Origin: Escherichia coli
GTDB lineage: Bacteria; Pseudomonadota; Gammaproteobacteria; Enterobacterales; Enterobacteriaceae
Assembly (NCBI RefSeq): GCF_041248615.1
Contig: NZ_CP158426.1
Length of the DNA: 64,000 bases
Strand: one strand, 5' to 3'
Shown: positions 55,054 through 59,640 of the stretch, in pieces
How positions within the stretch are numbered: position 1 is the first letter of the stretch
Layout of the letters: every line of letters starts with the position of its first letter
Program-made: the position numbers and the translations under genes
The notes under the pieces: model-generated
What the model was told of the DNA's origin: nothing
What the model saw: only the letters and a program-made list of their open reading frames with translations
Databases searched by the model: none

Positions 55054-56370
55054 TTACCTGTTTTCCCATAATCTCAGCATCGCTTTGTGCTCGTCTGTCA
55101 GCACAATCTGCGGGCGTCTGGCTCGAATATAGCTAATCGCTTCATTAACGGTTTTACAGTGTCCGTAACATAACAACCATGCCGCCACCACCAGCGCACT
55201 GCGCGATAATCCCAATGCACAATGGACCAGAACGCTGCCTTGCTCTTCGCGTAATGTTTCCAGCATCGCCACGGCCTGTCGGAGCTCCCCCTCTTCCGGA
55301 ACCACCAGATCCAGCATCGGTACACAAAAATAGAGTCGATCTTTTGTGGCTCGTCCGCGAGGGAATTCAAAGGTGACGTCCAGAACCGCATTCTGTGCCG
55401 GAATATGTTGTGGAAACGCCCCTAAATAAACACCAGCCGTAATTTTGCTCACCGGCTCCAGGCGAAGGCAAAACCAACGCATAGACAGCCACATCCCGAT
55501 GCGCCATGGCAATGTCAGCCAGTAAACGGCAGGCGGGAGTTTCCCTTGACTATCTTTACCTGTTGTTATCGCGCCAAGCCCACCGTACCCACGGCCAATA
55601 ATGAGTAGCGATAATACTGGCCAACATAACCAGACTGACCACCATAACTGAAGCATTATCATTAGCTCCATCAACACAATGCACGCGCCCGCGCCTACGA
55701 CATATGGCAGTGCTATTTTGATTCGACGTTGATCAGGTTTCTGATAATTCCAACGACGGTCGACGGGCACCATCCAGTCAATTAACATACCTACCGCCAG
55801 CCCTGTGATGACATCAATAAAATGATGCTGCCAGGTCGTCAGCGTCGAAATGGCGATGAGTAAAAACCATCCGCCGCAGACTTTACGCCACCTCACAGCC
55901 AGATGCTGACGAAAGTGACGCCAAAGTAGCCAGCAGAGAATAATATGCAGCGAAGGAGACTGGTTATAAGGCAGATCAAACAATTCAAGTTGCGAAAATA
56001 ACCATCCTGTTACCCCACTCACTTCAGGACGGATAAAACTAAACTTCAGCGGATAGAGAAAAAAACCGCAGCAGGCCATTACCGTTGCCAGAATAAGCCG
56101 GTGGACCAGTCGGCGCTGCTCAAATGTCGAGCTACAAACGAACAGCGAAAATCCATATAAAAGATCCAGACTCCAGTAAGGAAAAATAGTCCAGGGAAGA
56201 AAAGGGATCGCCGTTTCCCAACCGAATACCTGACTGGGGATATCATGGTTGTTAAGATCCTGAGTCGCGGTGAACTGATTAAGAAATCCATATGTGAAGA
56301 AGAAAAACGGGGCCAGCAACAATAACCAGCCAGCTCCTTGTAGCAATACGTTCCGGCGTTCAGTTGTCAC
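55054..56370 (-). CDS. ynbD: Membrane protein with C-terminal dual-specificity phosphatase-like domain (YnbD); start approximate (possible GTG overlapping the ynbC stop)
   Basis: ORF track; multiple TM helices followed by phosphatase signature HCALGLSRS. Confidence 0.75.
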
Positions 56371-58117
56371 GACGCACCGCCATCGAAACCGTAAAAATGC
56401 CCCACTCATCAATCCGTTGGGTGCATTTATCAAATCCGGCATCATGCACGAGCGAATCCATCTCCCCTTGAGAACGCACGCGCATTACCCACGGTTTACC
56501 ATCTTTATGACTGGTTAATACCCCGGCAATCAGCTCCAGTTGTGGGTGCCACGGCTGCCCGGTGTAGATGAGAATGCCACCCGGCTCGATGGCATTGGCA
56601 AGACCTGCGAGTGAGTTTTTTACCTGCTCATTTTCGGGATAAAGCTCATACAGGCCAGAGACAATCGCCAGCGTAGGCCGCGGAGTTAACGTGCTGAGTT
56701 CTGCCGGATTAAACGCATCGCCCTGTTCAAAACGCGCCCGACCAGACATTCCCCGTTGGGCAATCATCTCTTGCCCTTGTGCAACATTTACCTCACTGTA
56801 ATCACGTAACAAAATATCGCTTACGGCAGGCTCGTTTACCAGCGCATCCAGTACATAGCGCCCATGCCCTGCGGCAATGTCAACCACGCGGACGGCTAAA
56901 CCTTTGGCGTGGAGATCGGCAACGGCTTGTTTAATCAGCATTTGTAAATGGGTTTTGCGCTGGCGAATACCGCGCCAGCCAACACTGTTCAGGTAGATTT
57001 TGTCAATTAAGCGCCCGAATGCGTTACTGCCTGGCGGTTGATTTTGATAGACATAATCCAGGGAACTGCCTGAATCAAAGCCGGTGCTCATTCCGAGATG
57101 CAGGCCCGCAGAGTGCGCCCCGAACAATTTCATCGCCTTTCGCATAAAGCGATACGCCAAATCAACCGGCGATAATGGCACGGGTCCACCTGAAAGGAGC
57201 CGCCAGCGATCCGCTGATGGTCCAGTGCGGTCTTCATGCTGATAATCAAATTTTTGCGACTTGTTAGCATATAAACGACTAATAAAGCTTTGCATTTTTT
57301 CAAATGCCTGCGCCCTGTTCTCTTCACCCAACGTGTCGTGATAAAAGCCTGGCAGCAGATGCAGCTCTTTCAGAGGGCTACGTAATCTCTGATAAAAATC
57401 AATCTGCGGTTGGCGATGCACCACATAGTCATCGCCTGATATCAGAAGTTGCGTGGGGAGTGTAATCGCCGCCGCATCGCTAACAATACGTTCAGACGTT
57501 TTATAGAGATCGAGCAAGATATTGACGGCAATCGCCCGTGTGATCAGCGGATCATTATTGAAACTCGCCACCCGTTGCCGATCGTGGGTCAGATAACGCC
57601 CTTTCACATAGGAATTAATAAAAAACAGACCACGCAGACGATGCCATAACGCCAGCCCAGGACGTGCCAGCGGCACATACAATTTAACCTTAAAGGCCGG
57701 AGATGCCAGCACCAGTCCACGAATAGCAGGCGCATAATCATGAACCCATGTGGCAACCAGCACTGCGCCAACGCTTTGCGCGATCACAACCACCTCTTCC
57801 AGTCCAACCTGGCTGTCGCTGGCAGCAAAACGGACAAATTCATCGACATCCCGCACTGAACGCGCAAGAGATGGGCTATAACCACGCGGCCCCGAACTTT
57901 TTCCATGCCCTCGGGCATCCCAGGCATAAAAAGCAGTATCTGGCATCGCCAGTTCATCAACGATATGTTGTAGACGACCAGAATGTTCATGACCGCGATG
58001 AAATAAGACGATGACCTTTTTCGCCCCGGGCTGTAAAGCGGGCCAGTGCCGATAAAACAACGCTGTATTATCACTGGTGATAAAAAAATGTTCCCCAGGG
58101 ATGCGTGAATTTTCCAT
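56360..58117 (-). CDS. ynbC: Fusion protein: alpha/beta-hydrolase domain plus SAM-dependent methyltransferase-like domain (YnbC)
   Basis: ORF track; lipase/esterase GxSxG-type motif (AQSVGA) in the N-terminal half. Confidence 0.85.
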
Positions 58118-58132
58118 TTTCTCTATTTTCCT

Positions 58133-59029
58133 TCAGTAACAGCAGTAGCGAATAAAATAAAAAAATACCGGAGCGGTGAAAATTAATGAGTCAATCCTGT
58201 CAAGGAGTCCGCCATGTCCTGGTAATAGTTTTCCACTATCTTTAACACCAATATCTCGTTTGATGGCTGACATCACTACATCGCCGCAAAAACCACTAAT
58301 ACCAATTAACAAACCCGTTAATAATGCCTGTAATGTATTTACCGGTGTCAGTAACGGTCCAATAATCAGTGACACAATCATGGTAGTGATTACGCCCCCC
58401 ACCAGACCTTCCAGCGTTTTTCCCGGGCTGACTTTGGGGACCACTTTTCTTCTGCCGCAGGATTTCCCCCATAAATACTGTGCAATATCGTTTGACTCGG
58501 TTAATGCCAAAAGAAATAACACCAGTAACGCCTCGCCCTGGATATTTATGGTTGGCAACATTAACAACCAGGCGGCATGACTCAAGGCGAAAACGATCAT
58601 TATCCAGCCCCAAAAAATGGCGCTCACAGTATGCAGAAAACCGGAGGGGTCCCCCACAAAAACTTGCCCGGTGGCTAATATCAGAAACCCAGCCAAAGGT
58701 ATAAATAACAGATACAGCTCAAAGCAATTAAAACCGATAAACAAATAGTTAAGAGGAATACCCCAATATAACCAACGCGGAAAATGTACAGATATAAGCG
58801 TACAATATTCTTTCAATGCCAGAAAACTTATCAGCGCAAAAAACGTCAACGTCATCCAGCGTGGACCTGAAATCACCATTGAAAAACAAATGACGATGCC
58901 CCACCAGGTACGAATACGTAATGTAACTTCATCCCCTTTTCTCTCCGGTAACCGCCATATCAGAAAACGGTTTATCAGCGTTGCTAAAATTAACAACGCG
59001 AAAAGTGTTGCCAGAGATTTTTCCAGCAT
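58133..59029 (-). CDS. ynbB: CDP-diglyceride synthetase-like (CdsA-family) membrane protein
   Basis: ORF track; polytopic membrane protein with CdsA-like C-terminal signature region. Confidence 0.8.
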   Translation of the reverse strand: MLEKSLATLFALLILATLINRFLIWRLPERKGDEVTLRIRTWWGIVICFSMVISGPRWMTLTFFALISFLALKEYCTLISVHFPRWLYWGIPLNYLFIGFNCFELYLLFIPLAGFLILATGQVFVGDPSGFLHTVSAIFWGWIMIVFALSHAAWLLMLPTINIQGEALLVLFLLALTESNDIAQYLWGKSCGRRKVVPKVSPGKTLEGLVGGVITTMIVSLIIGPLLTPVNTLQALLTGLLIGISGFCGDVVMSAIKRDIGVKDSGKLLPGHGGLLDRIDSLIFTAPVFFYFIRYCCY

Positions 59030-59640
59030 TATCTTTCAGCGCTCATAAGAAGCACACTCCGACAACGATTAATCGCAGTCCAGAGAAGCAGAATTGAAGC
59101 AATGCTCCATAAAAGATTATTCCATTGCATCCATTGTGGATAAATGGCAATGGCCAGCCCCCACAAACCAAATATTAACGCGCGATCGCTTTTGCCAAAT
59201 GGACCGACATAACTACGAATACCGTTAATCGTCTGCGCGAGTAAACCGCAAAACTCGGTCAATATGGTGCAAAATAACATGAGTATCACGAGTGATGCAT
59301 TACTTTCAGGTAAAAATAAAAACGGTAAATAGAGCGCAATATCGGAAATAACATCGCCAGTCTCATTCAAAATCGCCCCAAGACGTGTTTGCTGATTGCA
59401 CTCACGCGCCAACATGCCATCCAGCGCATTGAGTGCCATACGAATAAAAAGCACGATGGGCAATAGCAGAAACATGCCAGGATATGGCACCAACGCCAAC
59501 AACAAACCGGTGAGAAGAGAAAGTGCCAAAGCGGCAAGTGTGATCTGATTTGCAGACACTTGCAGCTTATGAAGCCAAAACATCGTCGGCCTTAACAGCG
59601 ACTGAAAGAGCGGTTTTATCTGGTAGAGCGTCATTATCAA
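59029..59640 (-). CDS. ynbA: CDP-alcohol phosphatidyltransferase-family membrane protein
   Basis: ORF track; motif D-G-x2-A-R...G-x3-D-x3-D (NALDGMLAREC...ILNETGDVISD). Confidence 0.85.
   Translation of the reverse strand: MIMTLYQIKPLFQSLLRPTMFWLHKLQVSANQITLAALALSLLTGLLLALVPYPGMFLLLPIVLFIRMALNALDGMLARECNQQTRLGAILNETGDVISDIALYLPFLFLPESNASLVILMLFCTILTEFCGLLAQTINGIRSYVGPFGKSDRALIFGLWGLAIAIYPQWMQWNNLLWSIASILLLWTAINRCRSVLLMSAER

Follow-up and report, generated by a model that had tools for sequence, protein, structure and literature searches.

The ynbABCD operon of Escherichia coli resembles a reduced form of an arc1-type phospholipid module

What pathway do the four genes of the ynbABCD operon of Escherichia coli encode, and is the operon complete in itself or part of something larger? 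We addressed this question for the copy carried by a 64,000-nucleotide stretch of contig NZ_CP158426.1, referred to here in its entirety as the window. The answer that we favour, with somewhat more confidence than doubt, is that ynbABCD is a reduced, four-gene form of a six-gene module of the type of arc1 (antagonism resistance cluster 1) of Pseudomonas aeruginosa, a self-contained and normally silent pathway for the synthesis or remodelling of a special glycerophospholipid derived from CDP-diacylglycerol (CDP-DAG). An original prediction, made from the window's sequence alone, had called the operon uncharacterised and its product undefined: we likewise found no published lipid for the operon as a whole, while YnbB, YnbD, the ynbA promoter and arc1 have already been studied. 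The operon is named, annotated and partly investigated, and finding it is not news; new are its membership in the six-gene module and the link to arc1, which we did not encounter in the literature searched.

The four co-directional open reading frames (ORFs) occupy positions 55054-59634 on the minus strand and are as tightly coupled as predicted: ynbA (59029-59634, 201 aa) and ynbB (58133-59029, 298 aa) share a single base (ATGA), ynbB and ynbC (56360-58117) are 15 nt apart, and ynbC is followed by ynbD (55054-56346, stop codon 55054-55056) either after a gap of 13 nt, if ynbD begins at its TTG (430 aa), or with an overlap of 11 nt, if it begins at the GTG at 56370 (438 aa) as in other E. coli records, including that of K-12. 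These coordinates are the PGAP/RefSeq annotation transferred onto the window, whose segment 54900-59900 is 100% identical to E. coli NZ_OW967178. The span first proposed, 55054-59640, does contain all four ORFs; its outer end is a TTG, and the ATG at 59634, preceded by an AAGGA Shine-Dalgarno sequence, appears the more plausible start of ynbA. The longest ynbD ORF (463 aa), which would run 86 nt into ynbC, probably overstates the gene. The domain calls of the prediction were reproduced by Pfam, decisively for YnbB (PF01148, 2e-68, 231.6 bits), for the hydrolase and methyltransferase domains of YnbC (PF12146, 5e-69; PF12147, 7e-151, 502 bits) and for the phosphatase at the C-terminus of YnbD (PF00782, 1.5e-27), and more modestly for YnbA (PF01066, 5e-10, 40.4 bits at a cut-off of 22), which places YnbA among the CDP-alcohol phosphatidyltransferase-family membrane proteins and YnbB in the CdsA family of CDP-DAG synthases.

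The link to arc1 starts from work on interbacterial antagonism. Six genes, PA2541-PA2536, make up arc1, which is induced via Gac/Rsm (Ting et al., eLife 2022, PMC8926400); its basal expression is low, it protects P. aeruginosa from attack by Burkholderia thailandensis with its type VI secretion system (T6SS), and five of its six genes look phospholipid-related, four of them resembling enzymes of phosphatidylglycerol synthesis (PMC8926400). In 2025, a CRISPR interference study recovered arc1A and showed that it helps cells to resist the lipase effectors TseL and Tle1 (PMC12663445). With a 21-mer of the published ΔPA2541 primer we retrieved a P. aeruginosa-like contig, on which the ΔPA2541 primers flank a homologue of YnbA and the ΔPA2536 primers (with 1-3 mismatches) flank a homologue of YnbB; between these two genes lie homologues of YnbC, YnbD, a small protein and an acyltransferase. 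Relative to E. coli, protein identity amounts to 48.6% for YnbA, 56.7% for YnbC, 41.1% for YnbD and 37.6% for YnbB, with tblastn E-values from 6e-45 to 0. By these matches, PA2541-PA2536 belongs to the ynbABCD module family, with PA2541 as the counterpart of ynbA and PA2536 as that of ynbB.

The two clusters are alike in that YnbA, YnbC, YnbD and YnbB have homologues (38-57% identity) in one co-directional cluster, in their low basal expression and in being predicted specialised phospholipid pathways. They differ in gene content, order and regulation: of the six genes E. coli has four, those for the PlsC-like acyltransferase and the small membrane protein being absent; its genes follow the order A-B-C-D instead of A-C-D-small-acyltransferase-B; and it is regulated by BglJ-RcsB instead of Gac/Rsm. 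Moreover, defence against T6SS and lipase effectors has been demonstrated in P. aeruginosa only. From this comparison of genes, E. coli carries a reduced variant of the module. Neither of the two arc1 studies (PMC8926400, PMC12663445) mentions ynb genes, and no paper in the literature searched names an E. coli ynb gene together with arc1A or "type VI secretion".

Is such a module found beyond these two species? Homologues of YnbC with at least 70% identity are spread over the Enterobacterales and are also found in Vibrio fluvialis, Snodgrassella and Orbaceae, and an exhaustive profile search yielded 408 clusters (50% identity level) at an E-value of 1e-30 or better. Scanning one genome per species with a YnbC profile built from a 10-sequence alignment (a 36-sequence alignment was too diverse) gave at least 509 confirmed loci in proteobacterial species. 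The Snodgrassella cluster displays all six genes, which encode YnbA, YnbB, a PlsC-type acyltransferase (PF01553), YnbC, YnbD and a small membrane protein of ~135 aa. Co-occurrence in other genomes, proposed originally as a check, was found by tblastn/blastp in 64 of 82 loci, which hold A, B, acyltransferase, C and D together, the small protein being detectable in 46 of these 64; another 13 of the 82, from Proteus, Providencia, Morganella and Xenorhabdus, contain A, C and D only. Two gene orders exist, A-B-acyltransferase-C-D-small in Enterobacterales and Snodgrassella and A-C-D-small-acyltransferase-B in Pseudomonas, Burkholderiales and Rhodocyclales, and the small proteins of both are homologous (hhalign 95.8%). 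Pfam E-values of the size given above, together with synteny kept in 82 loci of other species, rule out chance. A search for other conserved neighbours of the module, which could have pointed to the precursor of the head group, returned none past genus-level synteny. Since azoR lies downstream in Citrobacter, Superficieibacter and Phytobacter as it does in E. coli, the E. coli locus is positionally orthologous to theirs and has lost the acyltransferase and small-protein genes. Natural fusions, namely an 807-aa YnbA-YnbC protein whose gene is followed by D, acyltransferase and B, and an 889-aa YnbB-YnbC read-through protein of E. coli, support a functional coupling of the module enzymes. Comparative genomics in at least 509 species, in which the genes travel together and usually with a PlsC-like acyltransferase, thus strongly supports the predicted dedicated phospholipid pathway.

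We then asked what each enzyme might contribute. The catalytic motifs of YnbA, YnbB, the acyltransferase, YnbC and YnbD are conserved across homologues, and the window copy retains all of those that it encodes. YnbB carries a C-terminal signature, SAIKRDxGxKDxGxxxPGHGGxLDRxD, that is conserved in 66 homologues. The protein forms CDP-DAG in vitro but is unable to replace CdsA for bulk phospholipid synthesis (PMC6362211, PMC7018664, PMC11413397). Against the equivalog model of housekeeping CdsA (PRK11624) it scores 112 bits at a cut-off of 385, with residues 162-291 alone aligning, which leaves it a paralogue outside the housekeeping orthologues. Compared with CdsA in the first step of synthesis of the glycolipid MPIase (Sawasato 2019; Sato 2019), YnbB shares the catalytic C-terminal half, the formation of CDP-DAG and the rise in MPIase upon overproduction; it differs in its score far below the cut-off, its unrelated N-terminal half, its lack of support for bulk phospholipid and its position inside a module that has no glycosyltransferase.

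In YnbA, the canonical motif D1xxD2GxxARx8Gx3D3x3D4 is altered: it reads N69xxD72GxxARx8G86xxxN90xxxD94, with asparagine in place of D1 and D3 and with D2, G, AR, G and D4 retained. This form is invariant in 81 of 81 homologues, including that of PA2541. The top NCBIfam models, both sub-threshold, are those of phosphatidylinositol-phosphate (PIP) and archaetidylinositol-phosphate synthases, with 75.6 bits against a cut-off of 180 and 49.8 bits against 170, so that YnbA is assigned to neither; the PgsA models reach 27.7 bits. Its best relative in the PDB is PgsA1/PIPS of Mycobacterium tuberculosis (6h53, 5.7e-8), others being CHPT1 and PssA. YnbA thus resembles mycobacterial PgsA1 and the archaeal synthase (AIPS), its best relatives in sequence and structure, also in that a CDP-DAG transferase for a phosphorylated head group is paired with a phosphatase; it differs in scoring far under both equivalog cut-offs, in the exchange of the first and third aspartates for asparagines and in the absence of an inositol-phosphate synthase among the module genes, inositol having been considered as a candidate head group. 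YnbA forms a divergent subfamily for which canonical activity cannot be assumed. Likewise invariant is a GPxGKSDR motif that aligns with the ERPER segment of PgsA1; we take that segment to bind the acceptor phosphate, which is for YnbA no more than a lead.

The N-terminal domain of YnbC (residues 32-266, 57320-58024) is an alpha/beta hydrolase that structure comparison identifies as monoacylglycerol-lipase-like, with the fold and a Ser-Asp-His triad including the nucleophile elbow. Its C-terminal domain (residues 275-582, 56372-57295) belongs to the class I methyltransferases dependent on S-adenosylmethionine (SAM); conserved in it are the glycine-rich SAM-binding motif-I-like sequence DIAAGHGRY and two acidic residues, D439 and D467. 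For this domain a profile search of PDB sequences found no related solved structure (best E-value 0.14), two fold searches with the full YnbC model gave only hydrolases among the matches listed, and a literature search on PF12147 / Methyltransf_20 found no paper. A ynbC transposon mutant accumulates polyphosphate, in one strain background only (PMC2435150).

YnbD combines an N-terminal membrane domain (~residues 1-295, 55462-56346) with a C-terminal phosphatase domain (residues 306-430, 55057-55431). The original prediction had overlooked that the membrane part is itself a catalytic-type domain, akin to sphingomyelin synthase (SMS) and PAP2 enzymes. Its best structural matches are SMS, SMSr and fungal Aur1, an inositol-phosphorylceramide synthase, which form the phospho-head-group transferase branch of the PAP2 superfamily. 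It shares with them the fold, the conserved His-His-Asp of the catalytic motifs C2 (SxH) and C3 (HxxxD) and an active site predicted to be non-cytoplasmic; it differs in that sequence identity is only 11-13%, PAP2_3 stays below threshold (21.3 bits, cut-off 27), E. coli has no ceramide and YnbD is fused to a cytoplasmic phosphatase. Of the PAP2 C1 motif KxxxxxxRP, R106-P107 alone are kept, K101 not being conserved. The C-terminal domain is PTPMT1-like in structure and carries the fold, CX5R(S/T) loop and general-acid Asp of a dual-specificity (Cys-based) phosphatase. In sequence and model helices, the Arg/Lys-rich loops 75-83, 143-155 and 196-210 lie on the same side as the phosphatase domain and the catalytic motifs on the opposite one; by the positive-inside rule, the phosphatase would be cytoplasmic and the His/His/Asp site periplasmic. 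YnbD has been described as the fourth putative PAP2 protein of E. coli, with no function assigned (PMC7413402). In Snodgrassella alvi (L002 11758-13077), alone among 76 homologues, the C2 histidine (E. coli H134) is a tyrosine and P131-S132 is S-I, the rest of the protein being conserved.

Taken together, these enzymes suggest the following sequence of reactions. YnbB, whose activity is published, would supply a private pool of CDP-DAG from phosphatidate, which in the full module the PlsC-like acyltransferase would provide. YnbA would then move the phosphatidyl group onto an anionic, probably phosphorylated alcohol, and the cytoplasmic PTPMT1-like domain of YnbD would strip that phosphate. Next, YnbC may deacylate a mono-acyl lipid and methylate a further substrate, and finally the SMS-like domain of YnbD, through its periplasmic His/His/Asp, may transfer or remove, in the inner membrane's outer leaflet, a phospho-head-group. 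YnbA, YnbC and YnbD would constitute the core, with YnbB and elsewhere the acyltransferase as feeder enzymes. By homology with arc1, for which the phenotype is known in Pseudomonas only, the physiological role could be to protect or repair the envelope when phospholipases attack it. Only the activity of YnbB and the Pseudomonas phenotype are experimental; the other steps are drawn from homology and gene context. The same enzyme classes, namely a CDP-DAG synthase, a CDP-alcohol transferase, a dual-specificity-type lipid phosphatase, an alpha/beta-hydrolase deacylase and a PlsC-family acyltransferase, recur in the mitochondrial set for phosphatidylglycerol and cardiolipin, with CDS/Tam41, the CDP-alcohol-type synthase Crd1, PTPMT1, the deacylase Cld1 and tafazzin.

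Several observations weigh against this pathway. The literature searched gives no lipid product for either ynbABCD or arc1, E. coli is without two of the six module genes, and a defence role in E. coli would rest on the analogy to arc1. With asparagine for two metal-binding aspartates, the chemistry of YnbA may depart from standard phosphatidyl transfer. Overexpressed YnbD rescues mutants neither in undecaprenyl-pyrophosphate (C55-PP) phosphatases nor in phosphatidylglycerophosphate (PGP) phosphatases (PMC7413402). Studies of MPIase assign YnbB another role, and a ynbB knock-out grows like its parent with an unchanged MPIase level (PMC6362211, PMC7018664, PMC11413397). Finally, out of 5426 complete E. 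coli genomes 4602 have ynbC and 824 (~15%) do not, and IS1 insertions and internal deletions affect further genomes.

The pattern of conservation within the species bears on this last point. In ~78% of complete E. coli genomes all four ORFs are intact, and roughly one genome in five lacks the operon or carries a disrupted copy; ynbA-ynbB is found at a coverage of at least 80% in 4249. In sequence type 131 (ST131), ynbABCD and ydbD are absent and azoR directly adjoins pdxI. The ynbA-ynbB segment (58133-59634) is 90-95% identical in 1735 genomes and 80-90% identical in 196, ynbC is always at least 95% identical, and only 4 genomes are at least 99% identical to the window across the operon; the greater diversity of ynbA-ynbB points to recombination, or else to relaxed selection, at the 5' end. 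Pairwise ratios of nonsynonymous to synonymous substitution rates (dN/dS) among four strains are 0.08-0.20 for ynbA, 0.23-0.52 for ynbB, 0.13-0.22 for ynbC and 0.13-0.25 for ynbD: the operon is under purifying selection that is nevertheless relaxed, above all on ynbB. The original prediction did not remark that the E. coli operon is a reduced module absent from many strains.

Could the operon serve a pathway that is already known? By class, the enzymes correspond to the steps of phosphatidylglycerol synthesis, with YnbB as CdsA, YnbA as PgsA and YnbD as PGP phosphatase, and a plain back-up set of this kind would agree with the likening of four arc1 genes to phosphatidylglycerol-synthesis enzymes by Ting et al. 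and with PTPMT1, a PGP phosphatase, being a close structural relative of the C-terminal domain of YnbD. We hold it to be very improbable, because YnbD rescues neither PGP- nor C55-PP-phosphatase mutants, with no complementation of pgpABC; in addition, YnbB cannot stand in for CdsA, YnbA matches the PIP/archaetidylinositol-phosphate synthase models (75.6 bits) better than those of PgsA (27.7 bits), and the invariant lipase-methyltransferase fusion and the SMS-like domain would be left unexplained. As the main explanation a second phosphatidylglycerol pathway was rejected on the failed complementation by YnbD and the altered motif of YnbA. The operon, or at least YnbB, might instead be dedicated to the essential MPIase, YnbB forming first CDP-DAG and next GlcNAc-PP-DAG (GlcNAc, N-acetylglucosamine), the proposed first intermediate, and the neighbouring genes providing later steps: overproduction of YnbB raises MPIase about as much as that of CdsA, YnbB together with Tam41p rescues a cdsA knock-out, and ynbB is cold-induced along with cdsA (PMC6362211, PMC7018664, PMC11413397). 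In our view, a YnbA-like enzyme could chemically join CDP-DAG and GlcNAc-1-phosphate. As the primary role of the module, MPIase synthesis fits poorly: the operon can be dispensed with and is often missing, and CDS1 of yeast and human gives the same effect, which is therefore not specific to YnbB. MPIase is reported to be essential, yet its level does not change in the ynbB knock-out, the 824 genomes mentioned above have no ynbC and ST131 has no operon at all; moreover, the conserved module includes no glycosyltransferase, Proteus and Providencia have the A-C-D core but no YnbB, and of the four genes ynbB is under the most relaxed selection. We regard this dedication to MPIase as distinctly unlikely, although it could be reconciled with an arc1-type lipid pathway if the acceptor of YnbA were a sugar phosphate. 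A bolder extension, to which we give little credence, is that the YnbA/PA2541 subfamily (N-x2-D-G...N-x3-D) couples CDP-DAG to a phosphate-bearing nucleophile and so yields a pyrophosphate-linked or otherwise non-canonical lipid, whose head group the periplasm-facing SMS-like domain of YnbD passes to another envelope acceptor, giving an inducible, new class of bacterial lipid that would strengthen or mend the membrane against phospholipase toxins; GlcNAc-PP-DAG as an example of such a lipid may reconcile the MPIase data.

A different question is whether the operon still makes anything in E. coli. It might be what is left of the six-gene module, silenced and decaying and without a physiological product at present: two of six genes are lost, G+C content is only 43-45% across ynbA and ynbB, and the ynbA promoter, mapped in K-12, depends for activation on BglJ-RcsB, a regulator first characterised at H-NS-repressed loci (PMC3950696). 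The frequent absence or disruption of the operon, dN/dS values above the core-gene norm (up to 0.5 for ynbB) and the normal growth of the ynbB knock-out are further points in favour of decay. Opposed to it are the four ORFs intact in most complete genomes, the retention of every catalytic motif in the window copy, dN/dS values well under 1, an enzymatically active YnbB and the completeness in E. coli of the A-C-D core that is sufficient in Proteus and Providencia. Moreover, ynbB is a conditional transposon-sequencing hit in a strain with phosphoglyceride-linked enterobacterial common antigen only, being dispensable for making that molecule (PMC8609368). Functional decay in E. coli is thus unlikely in our estimation and nevertheless a real possibility.

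The ynbA promoter and regulatory region lies in the 169 nt between ydbD and ynbA (59635-59803, minus strand). Here, TATTCTGA at ~59726-59719 agrees by eye with the published core wwTTCykA and is a candidate only. The same region has one sigma-70-like match (59786-59759), such matches not being above chance; across the operon region, promoter- and terminator-like sites show no excess over the expectation from shuffled sequence, and an Rfam scan of 54000-60500 gave no match. The operon is bordered by hrpA and azoR on one side, azoR lying 53 nt past ynbD, and by ydbD on the other; together with ydbD it behaves as one presence/absence block of ~7 kb (55054-62116). The ydbD product matches only DUF2773, at its C-terminus, and the gene is frameshifted in strain MY1-8.

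Variants of the cluster extend this picture. The 15-nt spacer between ynbB and ynbC (58118-58132) is in frame and stop-free, and loss of the ynbB stop codon accounts for the read-through 889-aa YnbB-YnbC protein (P0001) on record from an E. coli assembly. In E. coli ET450 a deletion fuses remnants of ynbA and ynbC, and the V. fluvialis locus (L004 9610-10008) encodes a truncated, 132-aa YnbB and no acyltransferase; these would be instances of independent decay of feeder genes. A second, Citrobacter-like cluster type, with an acyltransferase and a ~76% identical YnbC, resides on 100-170 kb plasmids of E. coli, Citrobacter and Enterobacter (L092, L093, H61-H64), one of which (L092) has ProQ/FinO-like and ParE genes alongside and only a 73-aa ORF at the ynbD position. 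In the P. fluorescens group (L076 15174-20984, 7107-9218) the cluster is flanked by genes for a 1936-aa bacterial alpha-2-macroglobulin and SPFH/Band-7 proteins, a synteny at genus level only. In P. aeruginosa, the factors of T6SS resistance also include the alpha-2-macroglobulin mag operon (PMC12663445).

The interest of ynbABCD lies mainly in its link to arc1 and in the unusual active site of YnbA. The literatures on MPIase and YnbB in E. coli and on arc1 and T6SS defence in Pseudomonas concern one gene family, and we found no mutual citation between them in the literature searched. Through this shared family the question becomes testable in E. coli, the easiest organism for lipid genetics and lipidomics, and nature offers variants for comparison: operon-less strains, the four-gene form, plasmid forms with an acyltransferase and the A-C-D-only form of Proteus. 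Should the module produce a protective lipid, this would bear on interbacterial competition in the gut and possibly on resistance to host phospholipases.

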